Shown piece after piece: positions 3 through 11,392 of a stretch of DNA of 11,392 nt. Within the stretch, counting starts at the first letter, position 1. Each line of letters opens with the position of its first letter. The translations under genes were made by a program, and so were the position numbers. The stretch spans positions 1 to 11,392 of the forward strand of contig JBHGNT010001160.1 in assembly GCA_043228905.1 (NCBI GenBank). Reading direction: 5' to 3'. The DNA comes from Azolla caroliniana (Eukaryota; Plantae; Polypodiophyta). The notes under the pieces are model-generated. The model searched no databases. It was not told the DNA's origin and was given only the letters and a program-made list of their open reading frames with translations.

Positions 3-1883
3 AACGCCCTTTCAGTGCATGATGTGCAATGTTTTCTCAGGTTTGCAAATTTTTATCGAAAATTTATTAAAGATTATTCCAAGGTTGTGCTTCCGCTTAC
101 TCAGCTCACACATAAAGATGAACCATTTATATGGAGTTCAGATGCAACCGAGGCATTTGAAAGCTTAAAACGAGCATTTACAACGGCACCTATCTTAGCA
201 CATGTCGACCCAACAAAACGCTTCATCCTCGAAGCCGATGCATCCGATTTTGCACTAGGGAGTGTCCTCTCGCAGACTGGAGATGATGGACAACTACACC
301 CTGTCGCCTTTCATTCACGAAAGTTTGAAGCTGCAGAGATCAACTACGAGATCCATGACAAAGAGCTTCTTGCAATCGTGGATTCGTTTCAACAATGGCG
401 ACATTTCCTAGAAGGTTCTTCTCAGCAGATCATTGTCTACAATGATCATAAGCACCTGACTTGTTTCCAAAATGCTCGAGTCTTGAGTCGGCGACAAGCC
501 TGGTGGGCGCAATTTTTCACTCACTTTGACTTTATCATCATATATCGCCCTGGGATGCAGCAAGGCAAAGCAGATGCTCTTTCTCAACGCTCTTATATGG
601 AACTTCGTCCAGGGGAACCTGCATTTGAGCATAAAAAACAAATCCTTTTGGGTCCGAATCGATTACAATTAATGGTAGTTAACGCCATAACAACTCTTGA
701 AAATTCCACTCTTCTTGATTCCATTCGAGATCATATGGCCACTGATGAGTTCGCCAAGGATTTTTTGGATCATATCGTCCCGAATCGTGCTTCTTGCAGT
801 TTCAAAAGGTTTTGGTGCAATTCTCACAGTGGTTGATCGATTTACCAAAATGGCACATTTCTTGCCATGTACCAAGTCGATTACTAGTCAAGAGGCGGTT
901 GATCTCGTTATGCGGGAGGTATTTAAGCATCATGGTCTACCGAATGATATTATTAGTGATCGTGGTCCACAATTCATCTCAAAGTTTTGGAAGCACCTGT
1001 TCAAACTTCTCCACATTTCAGTTAAGCTTTCTTCGGGCTATCATCCTGAAACAAATGGCCAAACAGAGCGTACCAACAAGACATTGGAACAATATCTTCG
1101 TTGTTTCATCAACTATCAACAAGATGATTGGGTTGATTTTTTGCACTTGGCGGAATTCGCTTACAACAACTCAGCCCATTCTTCTACAGGATATTCCCCA
1201 TTTTTCGCAAATACGGGTTGTCATCCTCGGTGGACGATGAATGCGCATCCAGAAGTTCCTACCAACCCTGCTGCCGAGGATCGTCTTAGTCGCCTCCAAG
1301 AAATTCAAGCTAACATTCTCCACAATTTGCACGATGCTCAATTTACACACAAGAGGCTTGCCGATCGTCATCGTCTAGACTCCTTAAAAAAGTTCCGCAT
1401 TGGGGATCATGTATGGCTTCTCCAACACAACATCAAGACCACTCGACCTTGCAGTAAATTGGATTACCAACGTTTTGGCCCTTACATGATCACTGGTAAG
1501 ATAAGTGATGTTGCATTTCGTCTTGACCTCCCTCCGCACATGCATCTTCATCCGGTGTGTCATGTATCCCTTTTGGAACCTTATACTACAAGTTCAATTC
1601 CATGCCGTCTTACGACACCCCCACCACCTGTCGAGTTCTTGGACGGGCCTGAATTTGAAGTTGCTGTCGTTCTCGATTCTAAAATCGTGCGCAACAAGTT
1701 TACTTAGTCGATTGGCTAGGCTATACTCCCAATGATCGAACTTGGGAACTTGGCTAGGCAAATCTTTCCAATGCTGCAGAACTCGTCCATGCATTTCATC
1801 GCCAATATCCTTGTAAACCAGGTCCTAATACAAACCCTACGACCCGTGAGACGGGTCGTCAAAGAAGGGGGATAGTGTCATGA
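3..1883 (+). pseudogene. pol: pol remnant: RT C-terminus/RNase H, integrase core, GPY/F motif, chromodomain; internal deletion and frameshifts
   Basis: ORF 15-836 has FANFYRKFI, EADASDFALGSVL, NYEIHDKELLAIV and YRPG..QGKADALS. ORF 697-1707 has VVDRFTKMAHF, SDRGPQF, YHPETNGQTER and RFGPY. The chromodomain starts EFEVAVVLDSK and continues after a frameshift (~1700) as YLVDWLGYTPNDRTWE..*..NLSNAAELVHAFH, ending at TGA 1881-1883 inside the LTR. Confidence 0.93.
1861..1875 (+). other. Polypurine tract (PPT) of element D
   Basis: AAAGAAGGGGGATAG lies immediately before the TGTCA LTR start. Confidence 0.88.
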
Positions 1884-1930
1884 TAACACTCACATCATGC
1901 ATCGAAAGGATCATGACACTCACATTATGA

Positions 1931-1999
1931 CTCGAAAGGATTTGAACCCACGACCTTGTTGTACACATGTCAAATCCTTAACCATTGTATTAATATTCT
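1931..1999 (-). promoter_or_regulatory. Degenerate tRNA-like Pol III type-2 promoter module in U3 of LTR D
   Basis: The minus strand reads TAATACAATGGTTAAGG (A-box-like, 1982-1992) ... AGGTCGTGGGTTCAAATCC (variable loop plus B box, 1938-1948) with tRNA-like spacing. Stems are poorly paired. Confidence 0.6.
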
Positions 2000-2011
2000 T
2001 ATATGTATAGT

Positions 2012-2181
2012 CTCTAGAATATGAAATCTAATATCATAGGAATATTCTATATTACTCTACATTCTAGAATGACCTAGAATATTCTAGAGTGTTCTATACC
2101 ACTAGAACCTTCTAGAATACTCTAGAGATCTTCTAGATTACTCTACATTCTAGGATAACCTAGAATATTCTAGAGTGTTCT
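2012..2181. promoter_or_regulatory. Array of heat-shock-element-like motifs, including a 45-bp direct repeat
   Basis: TTCTAGAA and GAATATTC cores recur. A perfect nGAAnnTTCnnGAAn (AGAACCTTCTAGAAT) is at 2104-2118. The direct repeat is 2051-2095 vs 2137-2181 (43/45). Confidence 0.7.
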
Positions 2182-2346
2182 CTATTAATTATAAATAGGG
2201 ATCTACCACCCATCCCAAACCTAAATTGGTTCAACGCCACTTTGTAGCCTACTCTTTGTAATCCATTTTACGCTTCAATATAATAATTCTCTTTCAATTA
2301 TCTTTCTATCTCTTTTTCTCTCTTTTTCTCTCTCTCAGTCTTGACA

Positions 2347-2738
2347 CAGACAACACTCGGCTGAAGGTGTTGATGTGGGAGGTGGCTGGATCGGTTTCTC
2401 TCATCTTCAGGTTGAACAGTTGTCCGATCAATATCAATTTCGAAGATGCGGACTTCTTTTCGTACATAGCCTGCAGTTTCTCCCATTACGAGAATGTTGT
2501 CGTCCTTGGCCATATTGAAGTAGAAGTTTTCAACTAGATGCATTCGGATGATGGAGTGCGAGATTTCGTCCATGGATCTCCACTCCTCGACTGTCATCGA
2601 AGAAGGTTTTTCACTGTGTCGAATGGCTTTGAACCGTCTTCTAATGATCAACACATCCTGCATCATCTCCTTCCACAAGGCAAAGTTTTTTCCATTGAGC
2701 TTTCGGATTTCAACTCTTGTACCGAATGTTGAAGCCAT
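2347..2738 (-). pseudogene. gag: Copia gag N-terminus (DUF4219/UBN2-type), frameshifted and truncated by element D
   Basis: MASTFGTRVEIRKLNGKNFALWKEMMQDVL...MAKD continues after a frameshift (~2500) as TTFS*WEKLQAMYEKKSASSKLILIGQLFNLKMRETDPATSHINTFSRVLS, stopping at the LTR D boundary. Confidence 0.9.
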
Positions 2739-2822
2739 GTTCTTTTTGAAAGTGAGATTTTTACTAACCTTGTATTTTCTTTCAACTTTCTTTGCTGTTT
2801 TGTTGCCGTTGAACAACAAGTC

Positions 2823-2834
2823 ACTTTGATACCA
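2823..2834 (-). other. Primer binding site (tRNA-iMet) of Copia element B
   Basis: Minus-strand TGGTATCAAAGT matches canonical TGGTATCAGAGC at 10/12 and lies 2 nt from the LTR terminal CA. Confidence 0.85.
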
Positions 2835-3081
2835 ATTGAAGGATATGGCATTCGATATGTATGTGGAAGTATGTGAGGACCAGTAGGTTATGTCAACAAC
2901 AAGTCACCACAAAGAATATGACAGAAGAGATAGATGAAATGTAGACACAGTTCGAAGCTCTAATGGAAGCTCTCGTTATTCTGTAACTCTTACACTCATA
3001 GAGGCTCAAGATACAAGAGAAAAGGTATCTGTTACAATGTTAGGGTTGAGCTTATATACTAAAGCCCTAGCTCAAGGACGC

Positions 3082-3930
3082 CGCCGTGAGGATTTTCGGC
3101 AATGGTAAGAAAACCGAGTGGAGCGAATAAAACGAGGATGTGCAACGTTGCACATGCACTTAGGGAATATGTAAATAAGAATAAGAAAACAAATGTAAAG
3201 GGAAAGGTGGAATGTAAGGTGCTAAAGTACACCACAAAGTTCATGAAACGTAAATGTGATGAGCACTTAGGTGCACATGCAAATGTAGAAAAGCGGAGTG
3301 CATGGAAGTAAGAGTGTAATAAGTAGTAGGCATGGTGATGTGTGTGTGAAAATGAGAGGACAAGGAGTTAAGGCCCCATCAATCTCTCCTCCTAATATCA
3401 AGGCAAATATTCCCCTTTGAAAAGAGTGGAATATTTGGCCTCTCTTTTGGTAATAAGCTCACCCTTCTTCCACTATAAAACGGGGTGAGGAGTCACCATT
3501 GAAAGGGTCACAATTTTGTCGTTAGAGGTAGGCCTATTAAGGTTTTCTTCTTCATCTTATCCCTATTTTGTTTTAGGATTTTGGTTTTAAGTTCCCTTTC
3601 ATATCGTTTTCCTTTCTCTCGATTGGGGTTTAGGTCTTCTTCCTATTCGGTTAGGTTTTCTTGTTGTGCTTGAGTTTGGCCTATATGGCCGCGGTTGTAA
3701 TCATATTGTGGCTTGTCTTTATCTAGCTCTTTATCTTTCTAATCTTTGCACATTGTTTGATGAACCTTGTCTCGATCTAGCTCTTTATCTTTCTAATATT
3801 CGCACATTGTTCCTCCTCTTTTGTGCTCGGAGGCTCGATTAAGCTCCCATTTTCCCCCTTCTTTTACTCCCTAGTCCAATACCCTCGTGATCCTGCCCAA
3901 GTCGACATGCACGCGCAGATTTCCGCGACA
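3082..3930 (+). mobile_element. Element C: solo LTR (849 bp) related at its termini to LTR F
   Basis: Start CGCCGTGAGGATTTTCGGCAAT matches F start TGTCGTGAAGATTTTCGGCAAT (19/22). End GATTTCCGCGACA resembles F end GATCTTCACGACA. It is flanked by ACGC at 3078-3081 and 3931-3934, and has TATAAAA at 3474-3480. Confidence 0.8.
3712..3811 (+). repeat. Two 46-bp direct repeats (period 54) inside LTR C
   Basis: CTTGTCTTTATCTAGCTCTTTATCTTTCTAATCTTTGCACATTGTT at 3712-3757 has a near-identical copy at 3766-3811. Confidence 0.9.
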
Positions 3931-4026
3931 ACGCGTTTACACTTGGGATACAAAGTGGAAGGAGTCGACCTTTTATGCCAACAAGTTGAACTCTTTCCCG
4001 CTCATAAGCTCCCAAGTCCAGTGTCA

Positions 4027-4568
4027 ACTGTGGCTGATCTTATGGACTACGACGTAAAAGCAAGTTAATCCATCAATGACTTTGTTAATAAAATGTCCTC
4101 GATCACTAATTAGCTCAATCGGATAGCCATATCGACACCATATGTACTCATAGAGAAACTTTGTTGTTGACACCGCCGAATTAACCCATAGTGCATTCGC
4201 CTTGACCCATTTGGTGCAATAATATGTGGTCACTAGGATATAGCGATTTTTAGTTCGTACCGTTGTTGGCTTGAAAAGCCCGACAAAATCTATTCCCCAT
4301 TTTTGAAATCGCTCCAATGGTAATATCGGCTGATGTGGCATCCTTCCCTGTTCCATGGGTTGGCCCATCCACTGGTATTGGTCAATATTCTTGAGAGGTT
4401 GTTGGCACAAGGTGGTTAGCCACCATAGTTCGTTGCACCAAATTTTCCGTGCCGTTGCGTCTCCTACAAAGTGGCCGACGGCTACTCCACAATGAGACTC
4501 TCGTAACACTACAACTTTCTCGTCACTTTGGATTGCCTTTCACCAAATTTTGTCGGTTCCTTTGTGGT
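4027..4568 (-). pseudogene. pol: Integrase N-terminal half (damaged HHCC finger, core with first two catalytic Asp)
   Basis: HKGTDKIW*KAIQSDEKVVVLRESHCGVAVGHF, FQKWGIDFVG, TKWVKA and ELISDRGHF are present. It is cut after VVHKIS by element B. Confidence 0.9.
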
Positions 4569-4896
4569 TCAATTAAAGTTTCATAAAGTTTTTTAATGAT
4601 TTAATTAATTTGACTTAAATATTTATTTAATTTAATGGTTCAATTAAAGTTTCTTTTATCGATTTAATAAATTTAACTTAATGCTTATTTAATTTAATGT
4701 ATTTTTGTATATTTAAATATTTAATTAATTTGACTTAAATGGTTAGGTTTAAATTATTTATTAAATGGATTGGTTTGGTTTCAACTTTTCCCTAAACGCT
4801 TTGGTTCGGTTTGGTTTCGTTTTTGTTTTATATAAACGATTTGGTTTCTTTGCCTTGAAACCGAACCGAACCAAAACCGAACTGTGCTCATTGATA
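4569..4896. mobile_element. Element E: AT-rich non-autonomous DNA-transposon-like fragment (hAT/MITE- or Helitron-like), left end missing
   Basis: An abrupt AT-rich non-coding block interrupts pol. It has about three degenerate 60-70 bp tandem units (TGGTTCAATTAAAGTTTC at 4565 and 4636) and GGTTC/AACCG arrays forming an 18/19-bp inverted repeat (4800-4818 vs 4857-4875). Confidence 0.6.
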
Positions 4897-6500
4897 GTGG
4901 TAGTCTTGTACTCAGAAAATGCATCATCTCGAGTATCCAAGGGTCCTCTGGTTACTCCTTTGGATTGGTTGGGTCCGCCGCCTTGACACTAAACAACAGT
5001 CCGTCCAGAAAATCATCCCGGACACCGTCTCCTTCGTCGGATTCCAGCTAGCTCAAGTATTCTGTGACCGCGTGCTGCACCCCGGGTCGATGGTAGATGT
5101 AGAGTTCAAATTCTTGTAGCAGGAGAGTTCACCGGGCCAATTTTTGGTTAGCAAGGTGTTTGACACCAAGTATAGTAGTGCCAAATGGTCTACATGAAAC
5201 AAAAATTTCTGGCCCAGTAAGTAGTGTCGAAACTTATTCACACTATAAACCTCCCCAAGGCCTCCCTTTTCATGGTTTAATAATTCTGTTTGTCTTTTGA
5301 TAACTTCCGAGTCACGTAGTACACCAGCCGGTACCAATTTGGCCCTGTGAGCTGCATCAGGGCACTCCCAATTACTACGTATGATGTGTCCACAAACACA
5401 TGGAAATCTTTGGACCAATCCGGGGCTTGGACGATCGGAGCCTATGACAACATAACTTGTAATGCCCTGTATGCTTTGTCTTCCACGCCCATCCATTGAA
5501 ATGGTACTTGGTGTACTACGACATGTAACAACATTGCAAAGTTCACCAGATATTAGTATTTGGATATGCGACTGGATCTGACCTAAAAATTAGCTTAGTG
5601 CTTTGGCATTCGTTGGGTTTTGTGCCCCCAAGATAGCCCTTAAGTACCTTTTCCGGATTGACTGTGATTCCCTCCTTGCTCACAGTATGCCCTAGTAACA
5701 CGCCACTTCTGACTTTGAATGCACATTTGGTTGGATTCAAACTTAGTCGCAAAATTCAACATTTCTCTAGACACCTCCGAAGATGGCCCAAGTGTTCGGC
5801 TTTCCAGCTATACACTGCAAAATCATGAAGGAAAACTAGCATGAATGTCGAAATATAATCGCCAAAAATCTCCATAGTGATTCGCTGAAATGTTGGTGGT
5901 GTTGTCTTTGATCCGAACATCATGACTACTACAACAAACATTCCCCATTCTGTGACGAATGCCATTTTTCTTGATCAGTCGGATGCATTCTAATCTGGTT
6001 GTAACCCTGAATCCATCCAAAAAGTTGTAAACCTCATGGTCGACTATTGGATTGAGTACTTCGTCTATAAAAGGCAGCGGAAAGGCATTTGTAACCATCG
6101 CTGTGTTGAGCTTCCGATAATCCACACAAACCTTAATTTTCCCGTTCTTCTTGGGTACTCCTACTATTAGACTCAACCACGTAGCTTGCTTTACCGGTTG
6201 TAGAAATCCGACCGTTAACAATTTTTTGATTTCCTCTTTCATTTTTGCAGCTTTGTTGGGGTTCATCTAGTATCGCCTTTGGGCTATCGGTTTTGCGTCC
6301 TTACTTTGGTGAATTTGATGTTGGTAGAATTTCAGGTCTAATCCCTTCATGTCCTTGTACGACTAGGCAAAAACATCCTTGAATTCCTTCAATGGTGCTA
6401 CCATCTCCAATTTTTCTTCTGGACGCAAATCCATTGCCATGCTTATTGATTGTGGTTCTTTGATCATTCCCAAGCTGACCTCTTCCAATGTTTTTTTTCC
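4897..6500 (-). pseudogene. pol: Reverse transcriptase and RNase H remnant
   Basis: Motifs include VPKKNGKIKVCVDYRKLN, FPLPFID, FLDGF, MMFGSKT, FLHDFAVY (catalytic FLDD mutated), LNPTKCAF, KFRHYLLG..F.FHVDH and HRPGVQHAV.EYLS. There are multiple frameshifts. Confidence 0.93.
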
Positions 6501-6744
6501 ATTTAGAGATACTACTTTAGTTTTTTTTTTTTTTATCTTTGGCTCGCCCGAAGGCTACAACTCACACAAAGTCATGTTTTATTAGTAGTATATAGTCCAT
6601 CAAGGGGTGTACCGAATGGTACGAGTGAGATACATGCACAGGATGACCTCTAGGAGATATAATGAGACTCGCACCACGTTCCATCATGCAACTTGTAGAC
6701 AGGCTACATTTTACCTTCTTCATCGTCGAAACTGTCATTGTTGT

Positions 6745-6947
6745 CACCGTCACCATCTTCGTCGTCGTCACTTACGGACACAAACCGCCCTTCACCGTCA
6801 CCATCTGCGTCGTCGTCACTTACGGGCACAAACCGCCCTTCACCGTCACCATCTGCGTCGTCGCCACTATCTTCGTCGTCATCACTTATGGGCACAAACC
6901 GCCCTTCATCGTCACCATCTGTGTCGTCGTCACTTACGGTCACAACC
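6745..6947 (-). repeat. In-frame 48-bp minisatellite encoding an Asp/Gly-rich repeat in the PR-RT linker
   Basis: Units start at 6745, 6793, 6841 (48+18 bp) and 6907 (partial). The minus frame gives (DGEGRFVPVSDDDADG)n. Confidence 0.92.
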
Positions 6948-7199
6948 TCTTCCAGTGTTGACGCCTTTACTTTCTAGGATATAGCTAATTCTTTTTCCAA
7001 TGCGTCATGCGCTTGGCGAAGCTCCCAAATAACTTCTACGTCCAGTTGAGCTAGATTCTCCTCTATGACTTTGTCGGTTACATATGGAATTACGGCTTCT
7101 GCCACATCAATCTCAAACAATGACACTATTTGTGGGTTCTCCTCCAGGTATTGATCCACTTCCTCATCCACCAATCCGTCTAGCATATGGACGGTGTCA

Positions 7200-7700
7200 A
7201 CTACTTTGTAATGGTCACGCTCTCCTGTGTCGGCATTCGAACTTTTGTTTTCCCCCGATGGAAACTAATAATGTTCTTTTGCCAAATTTGTTTAATATGG
7301 GTCGTCTTCAACCACGGTTGTCCTAATAGCAAGGGGTATGCCCCTGCTGTGTTCAACTTTAGTACCACCGCGGATATCTGGAATGGATGTCCGCCCATGG
7401 CTATTTCAAGATTCCGGATTAGCCCCGTTGGCCAGTCTGAAGTTGATTCCACCATTCACAACCAGAATGGGCATGGTTCCCATTCTTGGATGCCTAATCT
7501 TTAACAGGTACTTCATTGATTACATTTACACCAAAGCTACCATCAATTATTGTTCCAAGTATTTCGACGCCTTTAATAATTACTTTTACTATCGAATTCT
7601 GGTCATCAATTATTGTCAGTCCTTTATTCTGGTGTGTAACGTGTACCGGAGCCTCTGACAACGTGTTCCCCCTCTGTACTATTGTTAGAGTTTCCACAAA
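7200..7700 (-). pseudogene. pol: Retroviral-type aspartic protease remnant
   Basis: GTIIDGSFGVNVI (active-site region), PTGLIRNLEIAMGG and AYPLLLGQPWL. Confidence 0.85.
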
Positions 7701-7879
7701 TCAAGGAACAAGTTTCAAGAGTCCAGCCAATGGCATTGAAATTTGACAACTTGCTAGTGCTAGCCAAGCTGGATCCTCTGTAAGTGGTTCTTCTTTTGTT
7801 GTTGGTTTTTCTTCCAGGGACTACTTGTTTAATTCTTGGAGTATTTTTTCTACATTCCGCTAATTCACTTTCTCCACCC

Positions 7880-9520
7880 ATTGTTATGTTGTCTTTGGTA
7901 CAACTTCCTGGGCCTCCCATTCTACGGTGGTGACTTGTTGTCCTTCAGCCACCTCTATGGTCAGCATATTAATTGCCGCCATTTGGCCTTTTCCTTTTAA
8001 TGGACATTGCCTGCTATAATGCCCTTCTTGTCGGCAAAAGTCTTTATTACAATTATCTTTCTTAGAGCTTCCTGGGCCTCCCATTCTGCGGCGGTGACTT
8101 GTTGTACTTCAGACACCTCTATGGTCAACATATTAATTGCCGACACTTGGCCTTTTCCTTTTAATGGACATTGCATGTTGTAATGGCCTTCAGGTCAGCA
8201 GAAGTAACAATATAGTTTACACGGTTCGCTTGTTTCTACCTTATTTGTTACTACAGGTTGTGTTCTGGAGCCTAGCCGTGCTGATTCCTCTAGCCTCTAA
8301 GGTTTTGTTGGAATGGTTTGGCCTTTTGTGACTTTCTTCTATCCTCCGAAGCTCTTCAATAGTCATGTGAGGAGTATCGACGTTCATTTTGCCGATTGTC
8401 GGTACCATACCTTGGATCATAATTATGGCATTGGTCATCGTACACTTGCCGATCTATGTATCTTCATTCTATTTGCCTCTCTCGATCATAATAAGGGGAA
8501 TAATCTCTATCATATTGTCCTCTTCGGTAGTCCTCCGTTCTATAGCTTCATGTATATCGAGGTCGATCCTCCAGTCAATATCTGTCGTCCCATCAAAACC
8601 ATTCATCCGACCAGAATTGGTCCTTGTCCGTCCTCTGTTCAATTTGTCGTACCGATGCCGCTGGTGGATTGAGAAGGTTATATTCGCACATGTCGATTGT
8701 GTGGGCCCACGAATGGCACAAGGCATAGTGCATTCTCATTGTGCATTCCAAAGTCGAGTGGCCAGGGTTTAGGCATGTTGTGCACTACACCGCTTGCCGG
8801 AATCTGAGTTCCTCTTCCTTTGGTAGCACCTTTTGTAGAGCCTCCATTGACATGCTATTAACATTATGCGCTCTATCCATATCGAGCACTTTATCAATGA
8901 CTTGGTCAATGGTATTTGTGGTGAAGTCCAATACTGCCAATGTTGTTCGAAGTGGCCCTCTGAGCGCAGTTAAACATGTTTCCTCTAAGTCCGCCTCCGG
9001 TGGTGTCTTGGTTAACTGTTTCCGCAAGTTCTGTAACCCAATGATAAACTATGACACTGTTTCTTGTGCCTCTGGGTATGCCACATAAAACTGGCGCATT
9101 AATTCTCTTTGCGCCACTTGTCAGTGGAATAGCCGGATGAACTTGTCACTTAGTTGCATGAATGTTGAGAATTCCTCCGGATTATGCTGGGAATACCAGC
9201 TCGCCGCTTGCCCTTCCAAGGAAAGCCCGAATTCTGCTATCTTTGATGCATCAACAATGGCTTCTGCTAGTCCTTGGGACACATGGTTTGCTTGTCATGT
9301 GGTCAGAAATGCTTGAACATGGGCTTCTGTGTCCGGCTTGTCATTGTACTTCGGGTAGGGGTATGTCATATTGTCTTCCTCCTCGTTTATCCGGAAAATT
9401 TCCATCTCCTGATTCGAATTCTCTGACTCCGCTTTCTCATCAATTACTGTAGCTGGATCCTTATCCAATGTTAGTACTAGGAACTCTTCCTCCTTGCTCA
9501 CCGCTTTTACCCATGACGAT
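7880..9520 (-). pseudogene. gag: gag remnant with up to four CCHC zinc knuckles
   Basis: YPYPKYNDKPDTEAHVQAFLTT (capsid-like start), CTTCLNPGHSTLEC and YALCHSWAHTIDMC (~8685-8785), CYFC*PEGHYNMQC (~8170-8212) and DFCRQEGHYSRQC (~8005-8045). The start codon was not identified. Confidence 0.82.
7904..8205. repeat. 138-bp direct duplication of a zinc-knuckle module
   Basis: 7904-8041 vs 8068-8205, about 15 mismatches by hand count, period 164. Confidence 0.92.
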
Positions 9521-9583
9521 GGTGTCAGGCTTTCTTTTTTAGGAAATAGGTCCCTCCGGATGGGAAGTGAGAACAATAGTGTC

Positions 9584-9663
9584 GATGTGGTGTACCCGGC
9601 AACGGAAGACCCGATGAGAACCGGATGTGGGGTACCCGGCAACGGAAGACCCGGTGAGAACCG
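9584..9663. repeat. 40-bp tandem repeat x2 in the leader/LTR edge of element A
   Basis: GATGTGGTGTACCCGGCAACGGAAGACCCGATGAGAACCG and a copy at 9624 (38/40). It is cut by LTR F. Confidence 0.9.
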
Positions 9664-10041
9664 GTGTCGTGAAGATTTTCGGCAATAGTGTGAAAATCCC
9701 ATAAAACGTACAAAATCGAGTATGAATCACATAATACAATAATTGTGAAGATAACATTTTAAATAAATTTAAGTACAAAATGATGGAGGTTTCAAATGCA
9801 CTTTATTACACGAGAAACAGACAACTAAATGTCAAGATATGAGGGTATAAAGTTTGTGAAAGGAAAAGAGAAAATTGTGAGATATCCCACATAGGCACGA
9901 CAAATATGGTTCTCATCATATATAAGGTAGAGCAAAAGATATTATCTTTGTGTCTATGTGTGGAGCATAGAGAGTTCAAGGTAACTTGAACTAAGAGTGG
10001 AGGTGGGCTAGCTACTCGTAAAGGGTTTTGGCCAACCAAAA

Positions 10042-10200
10042 CCGGACCGGTGATGGAGCTGGAGACACCGGCGTCCGGCGGCAATCCGGCGATGGCGAGG
10101 CACCAGTAACCGATGGCATCCGGTAACCAACGGCAACCGGCGACGGCATCCGACGAGGCACCGGTAACCGACGACATCCGACGAACCGGTGTCCGGCGAC
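10042..10200. repeat. GC-rich CCGG-dense degenerate repeat island in LTR F
   Basis: About ten CCGG sites. A 27-bp direct repeat sits at 10096-10122 vs 10154-10180. The boundary with the AT tract at 10201 is sharp. Confidence 0.8.
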
Positions 10201-10240
10201 TAGATAAATAAATATATAAATATATATACATATAGAAGGA

Positions 10241-10311
10241 GGACAAGTAAGGATTCGAACCTTGCACCTCCAAGTTAGGAGTCAATTGGCTTACCATTAA
10301 GCCATGCCATT
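10241..10311 (-). ncRNA. tRNA-derived (Arg-CCT-like) pseudo-tRNA / Pol III module in U3 of LTR F
   Basis: The minus strand reads TGGCTTAATGGTAAGC (A box; D-stem GCTT/AAGC), loop CTCCTAA, variable AGGTG, and T-arm CAAGG-TTCGAAT-CCTTA (B box GGTTCGAATCC, 10251-10261). Acceptor and anticodon stems are degenerate, so it is not a functional tRNA. Confidence 0.72.
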
Positions 10312-10783
10312 TAGTTGAATTTATATTTCTATCATTGTACTTTTACGTGTAAATTCTCATACATGAGAGCTAAAATGAGTGACATGGTTATCATGCACCA
10401 CATGTAATACATAAGCGCCAAATGGCAAGCATGCATTTTATGCATGTCTTATACCCTCACATGCATCATATGCATGAGAGGATCTATAAAAGAAGGAAGG
10501 GGGAGGAGAAAAAAGACGTTTTTTTTGGGTTATGAAATTAAGAAGAAGAAATTTGTTATCAAATTGATCGTGTAACTTGTTTCTTAAATCTAAAGATAAA
10601 AAGTTCAATCAATCTCTCTCAATCGTTTAATCTCAACTTCTCTCTTTCCCAATCTATCTTAAGTACTTTCTCGCTAAAGCTTGCGCCAAAGCTTGTACCG
10701 ACTTTGAATCCTTCCGGTCCAGAACCCCGGCGGTTCCGCCTCACGATCCGCGCGTAGTGACGGATCTTCACGACATAATTAAG

Positions 10784-10801
10784 TGGTGAACCCGACGTGA
10801 A
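10784..10801 (+). other. Primer binding site complementary to tRNA-Trp 3' end
   Basis: TGGTGAACCCGACGTGAA is the reverse complement of the plant tRNA-Trp 3' end as I recall it (TTCACGTCGGGTTCACCA). Confidence 0.85.
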
Positions 10802-10842: not shown

Positions 10843-11392
10843 ATGGCGTCCTCAAGCAACCAAGCAGGAGAGCTCGAAAGGATGATGCTAATCGTCGAGC
10901 AAATGATGAGATCTCGGGACAACGACGCGAGCGTGGAAAAGGTTGTCGATCGTGTCGTAGAGCTCGAGGGCCAATTCGATGGAAGGAACGTTACGAAGTT
11001 CCTTGATGCATATAGAAGGGAGATGAATCAAAGGGACGTGTCCGAGGCACGTCAAATCGTAAGCTTCAAGAGAGTTGTCACCAACAACATCCAAAGACGC
11101 ATCATCGAGCTTCAAGAAGGTAAGACAACATGGTCCGAGTTCGAGAAAACGATACTAGCGGAGTTCGTGACTGAAGACTCAACGAGGATGAGTCGACATG
11201 CCCTGATGAAGTGGATAGAGAAGAAGAATAAGAAGATGAGCGTCTCGAGGGTGTACGATGAATTCGACCAGATGTTTAGTCGTCTCCCCAATACGGACCA
11301 AGTGTTGCTTGAAGAGGACAAGACTTTGTACTTCTTGAAGGCCGTGGACATAAAGGATAGACGGGAGTTGGGGACTCTTCTCGAAGATGATA
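10843..11392 (+). CDS. gag: gag (capsid-like) of element F, 3'-partial, >=183 codons; absent from the ORF track because it has no stop in the window
   Basis: ATG 41 nt after the PBS opens MASSSNQAGELERMMLIVEQ...GQFDGRNVTKFLDAYRREM...TTWSEFEKTILAEF...LYFLKAVDIKDRRELG with no stop to the window end. Confidence 0.88.
   Translation, partial: MASSSNQAGELERMMLIVEQMMRSRDNDASVEKVVDRVVELEGQFDGRNVTKFLDAYRREMNQRDVSEARQIVSFKRVVTNNIQRRIIELQEGKTTWSEFEKTILAEFVTEDSTRMSRHALMKWIEKKNKKMSVSRVYDEFDQMFSRLPNTDQVLLEEDKTLYFLKAVDIKDRRELGTLLEDD

Follow-up and report, generated by a model that had tools for sequence, protein, structure and literature searches.

Why would two long terminal repeats (LTRs) with hardly any detectable similarity each carry a tRNA-like module in the same orientation and at a similar distance upstream of the promoter? 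The question is raised by an 11,392-nt stretch of Azolla caroliniana DNA (contig JBHGNT010001160.1; hereafter, the window), a nest of broken LTR retrotransposons with several elements in series. Two of these, elements D and F, contribute the LTRs in question (LTR D and LTR F), each of which holds a tRNA-derived segment with an A and a B box, here called a head, in its unique 3' region (U3). The tRNA heads in these LTRs are real, family-wide and recurrent; their functional role is a prediction. Our preferred reading, to which we assign a probability of roughly 45%, is that they may act as portable DNA sites for TFIIIC, which would keep the nearby RNA polymerase II (Pol II) promoter accessible in two unrelated, coding Ty3/gypsy families.

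Two dissimilar LTRs carry tRNA-derived heads upstream of TATA

The comparison starts from the following features:

1876..2346, + strand: LTR D, a 3' LTR of chromovirus type, TG...CA, 471 bp
1927..1999, - strand: tRNA-derived head in U3 of LTR D
1938..1948, - strand: B box of head D, a perfect match
1982..1992, - strand: degenerate A box of head D (T8, A14, G18 and G19 kept, G10 lost)
2190..2197, + strand: predicted TATA box of LTR D, from a motif scan
9665..10775, + strand: LTR F, a 5' LTR, probably Phygy-like, 1111 bp, with a 10-bp terminal inverted repeat and CCGG at its left flank
10240..10311, - strand: tRNA-derived head in U3 of LTR F
10251..10261, - strand: B box of head F, a perfect match
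10294..10304, - strand: A box of head F
10485..10492, + strand: predicted TATA box of LTR F, conserved in a block alignment of nine LTRs

A motif scan placed the A boxes and TATA elements of both LTRs exactly where a preliminary description of this DNA had put them. Both heads are antisense and lie upstream of TATA, with an A-box-to-TATA gap of 198 bp in LTR D and 181 bp in LTR F, so the claim of divergent tRNA-like heads at a similar distance in both U3s holds. Since the U3 of LTR D is only ~315 bp long, the like distance of its head is weak evidence by itself. The window contains two strict B boxes only, those of heads D and F, each accompanied by an A box 43-44 nt upstream; a strict A/B pair appeared in none of 300 dinucleotide shuffles of the window, which held a mean of 0.4 strict B boxes per shuffle.

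The LTRs themselves are indeed unlike, as had been claimed: the best blastn match between them (E=0.018) covers a CT-rich stretch of U5, beyond which they share the B box alone. The two heads also differ, with 12 of 32 inter-box bases identical (38%). An unrelated tRNA-Arg(CCG) gene from a metagenome locus (L037) matches head F at 16/32 and head D at 16/33 inter-box bases, and the heads thus resemble each other no more than either resembles this gene. ARAGORN reported no tRNA gene in the window, nor in nine head-bearing loci among 16 metagenome loci scanned, and Rfam gave no tRNA match in the window, head D or head F. Judged by the cloverleaf, heads D and F are not tRNA genes. Independent capture in the two lineages is likely, the alternative being an old common origin followed by divergence. 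At the anticodon position, head F reads CCT; its inner identity of 50% with a tRNA-Arg gene does not establish that isotype as its parent.

The heads are fixed in their families

Had the modules been locus-specific insertions of short interspersed nuclear elements (SINEs), family members would lack them. We aligned contigs of public sequencing runs to both LTRs at 80% likeness, using runs X1, X3 and X19 (organisms A, B and D) for LTR D and runs X2, X3, X18 and X19 (organisms A-D) for LTR F. The summed contig depths given below show presence and are no measure of copy number; run X1 or X2 might come from the source of the window.

LTR D, run X1: head bins (1918-1986) 135,728-213,913; over 2010-2285, 36,802-124,341
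LTR D, run X3: head bins 28,306-41,609; over 2010-2285, 10,256-52,600
LTR D, run X19: head bins 96,119-143,810; over 2010-2285, 24,834-109,968
LTR F, run X2: head bin (10245-10285) 139,273; over 10327-10490, 134,890-209,241
LTR F, run X3: head bin 87,214; over 10327-10490, 105,731-184,407
LTR F, run X18: head bin 11,432; over 10327-10490, 6,566-15,733
LTR F, run X19: head bin 24,690; over 10327-10490, 21,693-47,757

Head D was covered at least as well as, or like, the remaining U3 in all three DNA runs, each with contigs bridging head and U3. Similarly, cover of head F fell within the range of the adjoining U3 or somewhat under it in all four runs, again with bridging contigs. No direct repeat of at least 7 nt flanks either head. 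With cover like that of the remaining U3 and no sign of a target duplication around them, heads D and F are fixed family-wide and are not local SINE insertions, the case that the preliminary description had named as a refutation. One additional RNA run gave no cover of LTR D, which has no bearing on expression.

Variation within the heads was limited. Among 40 of the 46 variant positions listed for LTR D, a single one at a frequency of at least 10% fell into the head (1952), and none into the boxes. Among 40 of 143 listed for LTR F, those in the head include 10278 and 10297; the latter lies inside the A box and is near fixed in organisms C and D. LTR D begins with a 30-bp tandem duplication (1880-1939) that many sister copies lack, as indicated by loose ends at 1913, in 12-15 contigs of each DNA run, and by joints in single contigs. 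In these sister copies, only a few tens of bases at most separate the 3' end of head D from the start of the LTR.

Three further tracts adjoin the heads. Between head D and TATA lies a duplicated repeat rich in CTAG palindromes (2030-2184), with candidate transcription-factor sites. Directly past head F, GC-rich tandem repeats and a TA microsatellite (10040-10244) are poorly covered in all four runs and almost absent in organisms C and D, pointing to a variable, subfamily-specific part of U3. From head F to TATA, dense CATG/CATGCA motifs (10360-10480) are conserved in seven of nine aligned LTRs; these motifs are RY-like.

Heads recur among relatives of element F and sit on probably exchanged promoter blocks

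Metagenome contigs were scanned, blind to the head, for an LTR end joined to a primer site of the F type. This yielded at least 122 loci, 80 of them with full flanks; most come from one assembly series and are not independent hosts. Behind the primer site, 61 of 92 sequences, that of element F among them, gave a Retrotrans_gag match. Clear antisense heads were present in 8 of the 62 listed loci with at least 600 nt upstream (L001, L023, L034, L052, L054, L058, L066 and L072), the nearest one lying 160-240 bp upstream of TATA. L054 and L058 carry two antisense heads each, in tandem, and both copies keep their boxes. All eight loci belong to the similarity cluster of F; none belongs to the other clusters, and LTR E, another LTR of the window, has no such head. 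The at least 122 listed loci included no D-type LTR, and relatives of D are known only from the run-contig alignment.

The antisense orientation put forward in the preliminary description applies to both window heads and is not universal. A profile built from 15 heads detected sense heads in L054 and L050, both outside the training set, besides those in L058 and L066, all just downstream of TATA in the R/U5 part of the LTR:

L058, 1646-1722: sense head, 74 bp downstream of TATA
L066, 2035-2111: sense head, 72 bp downstream of TATA
L054, 305-373: sense head
L050, 1524-1575: sense head

The sense heads present in some relatives are second heads in each case. In L054, L058 and L066, heads stand on both sides of TATA, each directed away from it. 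Further antisense matches with scores of 23.5-24 (L002, L050 and L071) and sense matches (L014, L036 and L071) were treated as noise, as shuffles gave 2-6 per round, and a remnant in L057 (E=7.6) was left uncounted.

A third, unrelated antisense head was found in L062 (57-132), ~60 bp inside a probable 3' LTR. L062 is a ~2.4-kb element with the same primer site as F and may be non-autonomous. The tRNA-Arg(CCG) gene of L037 (1150-1224) is a real tRNA gene, located ~200 bp upstream of the guessed start of a headless LTR and divergent from it, a single case. This geometry equals that of the captured heads and represents a possible route of capture. L017 has, flanked by a purine tract and a primer site, an F-like LTR that internal deletion has shortened to ~130 bp, so that its two termini meet; a joint resembling this deletion is also present in run X19.

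Aligning the block from head to TATA in nine LTRs revealed that heads and promoters vary separately. Compared with F, L054 and L058 have a similar promoter spacer (135/179 and 133/179 identical positions) and a different head (13/32 inner bases) at the same position. Conversely, L001 and L072 have a similar head (27/32 and 23/32) in front of a different spacer (61/179 and 69/179), with head-to-TATA distances of 183 and 160 bp, respectively. The simplest reading is that heads and promoter blocks have been mixed by exchange between LTR families.

The boxes outlast the tRNA structure

Conservation of the cloverleaf was considered and rejected, as pairing over the 15 aligned heads is near shuffled level: 49.5% of 315 cloverleaf cells are paired, compared to 46.9% after shuffling. 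By stem, pairing amounts to 37% (acceptor), 47% (D), 47% (anticodon) and 72% (T stem). The invariant or near-invariant columns include T8, A14, G18, G19, G53, T54, T55, C56, A58 and C61, which are the bases that define the A and B boxes bound by TFIIIC. Both boxes, at the tRNA-like spacing of 44-45, are kept in all 15 heads. In seven F-type heads, box-defining bases are retained in 67 of 70 cases, whereas outside the boxes the modal base is matched in 307 of 377 (p=0.0014 per base, Fisher test). A common terminator is missing: in 14 of the 15 heads, the first run of four Ts (T4) follows the B box at anywhere from 3 to 253 nt, and one has none.

Proposed TFIIIC binding and competing explanations

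A role at the DNA level is favored because the boxes outlast the structure, no common terminator exists and head position survives exchange; in the same line, head D retains a perfect B box although its A box is weak. We envisage that a head would be captured from a tRNA gene or from the head of a SINE2 element, copied to both LTRs through reverse transcription and spread through recombination between LTR families. TFIIIC would then bind the boxes, at roughly one nucleosome's distance upstream of TATA, and exert a barrier or nucleosome-positioning effect. In the antisense orientation, the TFIIIB side would face the promoter and any Pol III (RNA polymerase III) read-out would be directed away from the element's own start site. 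In yeasts, TFIIIC alone can serve as barrier and insulator, as covered in PMC3159450. A wider claim, which we consider possible but doubtful, is that autonomous LTR elements of seed-free plants have repeatedly captured different tRNA heads and traded them among families as portable TFIIIC insulators about one nucleosome upstream of TATA, some bracketing the Pol II promoter with outward heads and so shielding it against heterochromatin.

Several points weigh against TFIIIC-mediated accessibility. The barrier activity is knowledge from yeast that we extend to plant LTRs by analogy, and TFIIIC binding, chromatin effect and expression of the heads are predictions. As most related LTRs (54 of the 62 listed loci, and LTR E) have no antisense head, the head is dispensable, and copies with B-box damage exist (L034 and L052). 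Box conservation is partly circular, since the 15 heads were picked by box motifs; the F-type box test reaches only p=0.08 when done per column, on seven related sequences. The F-type head as a whole is about as conserved as the promoter spacer, as would be expected of a young passenger, too. Finally, a gag tree of 29 rows, four with a head, required three label changes, and 73 of 500 shuffles did equally well; this tree leaves out rows with fewer than 70 aligned residues or less than 700 nt upstream, and thus L001, L023, L052, L054 and L058. Its result is also compatible with loss, exchange or chimeric metagenome contigs, which cannot be told apart.

Alternatively, the heads could be working Pol III promoters that give outward or antisense RNA for self-regulation or as a small-RNA decoy, transcribing from the 5' LTR into flanking DNA and from the 3' LTR against the integrase end. 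The boxes and their tRNA-like spacing in all 15 heads would suit this, and foamy-virus LTRs harbor Pol III microRNA cassettes that depend on A and B boxes (PMC3993851). In addition, F-type heads contain a hairpin:

10238..10270, - strand: non-tRNA hairpin around the B box of F-type heads (arms 10270-10261 and 10247-10238)

It is paired in 85.7% of 70 cells, including six G-U cells and one compensatory change, but its covariation is no higher than in shuffles (243 of 500 scored as high). The hairpin is real as an inverted repeat and unproven as a selected RNA structure; it was not predicted in heads D, L058 and L062. Given also the degenerate A box of head D and the missing conserved T4 terminator, we regard Pol III output as unlikely.

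The heads might instead be neutral passengers, that is, a SINE2 or tRNA fragment that landed in a founder LTR, was amplified along with it and drew notice because boxes were searched; this takes tRNA-derived inserts to be common in such genomes. Kojima (PMC10886601) reports tRNA-like parts in many Repbase LTRs and proposes SINE2 insertion as their origin. The many headless loci, the TA-rich tail after head F and the few contigs in which head F adjoins different upstream DNA (6-19 of them at individual loose ends) agree with such a history. Passengers would hardly account for different heads at one position of the same promoter block, the same head on different blocks, the better preservation of box bases or the doubled heads of L054 and L058 with boxes intact in both copies, and we hold this explanation, too, to be unlikely.

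We consider it very improbable that the antisense head in the element's RNA pairs with the primer tRNA as the 3' half of a bipartite primer site, thereby aiding minus-strand transfer. Ty3 does use an antisense, tRNA-complementary sequence in U3 for its bipartite site (PMC5371799), and a tRNA-like sequence in HIV-1 U3-R promotes strand transfer (cited via PMC6468702), both, like the heads, on the element's sense strand. In contrast to these sequences, which match the primer tRNA, head F agrees at no more than 8 of 17 positions, and head D at 7 of 17, with the primer 3' end inferred from the F primer site, a comparison that covers positions 60-76 of the primer tRNA only. An origin of head F from its own primer tRNA was rejected on the same count; the primer tRNA gene itself was not found in two sequence scans. 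Moreover, elements sharing one primer site bear several unrelated heads or none, and if element D belongs to Tcn1, its clade is mostly self-priming (83%, supplement of PMC6317226). Least credible is a landing pad, in which bound TFIIIC/TFIIIB would draw further insertions, of the same element or of others, and so build nested islands: an isolated B box suffices for TRE5-A targeting (PMC3159450) and the L037 LTR lies close to a tRNA gene, but the window shows no insertion upstream of head D or head F, a single tRNA in 216 kb of loci could be a coincidence, element D has a chromodomain and Phygy instead prefers NCGN sites (PMC6317226).

Relation to known systems

The heads can be compared with several described systems. 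Cassandra, the precedent named in the preliminary description, does carry a Pol III module in its LTRs, but Helenus, tRNA-like and with A and B boxes, is also a closest parallel (PMC10886601). As described by Kojima (2024, PMC10886601), Helenus/TRIMp3 elements share a tRNA-derived LTR sequence with conserved A and B boxes and mostly no functional tRNA; they likely have multiple origins, and one family comes from Selaginella. However, they are short (~0.3-1.3 kb), non-coding TRIMs (miniature retrotransposons with terminal repeats), whereas element D has RNase H and integrase, element F has gag, and LTR F alone measures 1111 bp. In Helenus, the head is the proposed source of the template RNA; in elements D and F, a TATA promoter is kept and the U3 head is directed away from it, so that the window heads cannot make the element's RNA. 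Elements D and F are not Helenus members, although sense heads in R/U5 such as those in the metagenome loci are possible precursors of Helenus-type TRIMs. In Cassandra and Ajax, a Pol III promoter module is likewise fixed in both LTRs, but it is 5S-derived, sits in non-autonomous TRIMs and transcribes the element itself (per PMC10886601).

Foamy viruses combine A/B-box Pol III units with a Pol II promoter in the LTR of an autonomous retroelement (PMC3993851); theirs have stem-loop precursors, terminators and an RNA product, whereas the heads are tRNA-shaped, without a conserved terminator and known from DNA alone. Yeast extra TFIIIC (ETC) sites and tRNA-gene barriers are similar in being B-box-dominated sites that would bind TFIIIC without a tRNA product (PMC3159450), but they are fixed host loci with proven activity, and the heads are mobile, element-borne and known from sequence.

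In the literature searched (mostly at title and abstract level, with subscription journals and Repbase outside it), we found no description of autonomous plant LTR elements with antisense tRNA heads in their U3, nor of cis-acting anti-silencing by a self-carried tRNA-gene boundary for LTR elements. A look-up in the survey's own sequence index gave no DNA resembling LTR D or LTR F. According to Kojima, 'not a few' of the LTRs in Repbase include a tRNA portion, a point not described further in the text of that paper (PMC10886601); LTRs of this kind may already be listed in its supplements and in Repbase. In the Physcomitrium transposable-element paper (PMC7466625), the main text contains no occurrence of tRNA, Pol III or SINE, and the box motifs are absent from the supplements of PMC7466625 and PMC6317226, which hold little or no element sequence. 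For such motifs, the text of a sugar-beet preprint names only Cassandra and Helenus/Ajax (10.64898/2026.03.01.708851).

Host elements and neighbors in the window

The remaining features of the window, from left to right, are:

3..401, + strand: element D, RNase H region of a broken Ty3/gypsy pol (Pfam RT_RNaseH_2, E=1e-33)
691..1707, + strand: element D, integrase and SH3 (rve, SH3_Tf2-1)
after SH3 to ~1860, + strand: element D, frameshifted chromodomain, from a three-frame reading; PF00385 in most close relatives
1861..1875, + strand: element D, polypurine tract, directly preceding the TG start of LTR D
~2347-3080, - strand: probable Copia 5' end adjoining LTR D, with an initiator-Met-type primer site near 2821-2831 and a gag start by eye
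3082..3930, + strand: solo LTR E, probably Phygy-like, with F-related termini, a 4-bp ACGC duplication and no tRNA head, which makes it a negative control within the window
~4000-9660, - strand: decayed Ty3/gypsy-like element, the target of the F insertion, with internal tandem repeats at 6743-6945, 7889-8205 and 9584-9663
10784..10800, + strand: element F, primer-binding site, presumably of tRNA-Trp type
10843..11391, + strand: element F, gag start (Retrotrans_gag, E=0.005)

The chromodomain behind the integrase identifies element D as a chromovirus by sequence; its clade is probably Tcn1, the chromodomain itself marking a chromovirus only and not the clade. The probable Copia 5' end (2347-3080) gave no Pfam match. 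The isotype of the F primer site, presumably tRNA-Trp, agrees with the Phygy row of PMC6317226, in which Neumann et al. characterize Phygy by a tRNA-Trp primer and a 4-bp NCGN target duplication. Both marks are found here, with the primer site at 10784-10800, CCGG left of F and ACGC on both sides of E; for F, the duplication was judged from its left side only, as the right end lies beyond the window. Based on primer site and duplication, element F and LTR E are thus probably Phygy-like, the pol of F lying beyond the window as well. Viral contigs held no relative of the element D integrase or the element F gag.

Implications

Neutral or not, the heads mark their families and are likely to give rise to false tRNA or SINE annotation. 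The natural swaps, that is, one promoter with another head, one head with another promoter, and headless LTRs, provide ready comparisons. Helenus-type TRIMs could also plausibly have arisen by way of autonomous LTRs that already bear tRNA heads, some in sense orientation. If TFIIIC binds the heads, abundant plant retrotransposons would bear their own chromatin boundary, and many TFIIIC sites would be scattered across the genome. RLG1 of Physcomitrium stays transcribed in heterochromatic islands (PMC7466625), and a self-carried boundary would, if true, be a candidate answer to how the elements of such islands remain transcribed.

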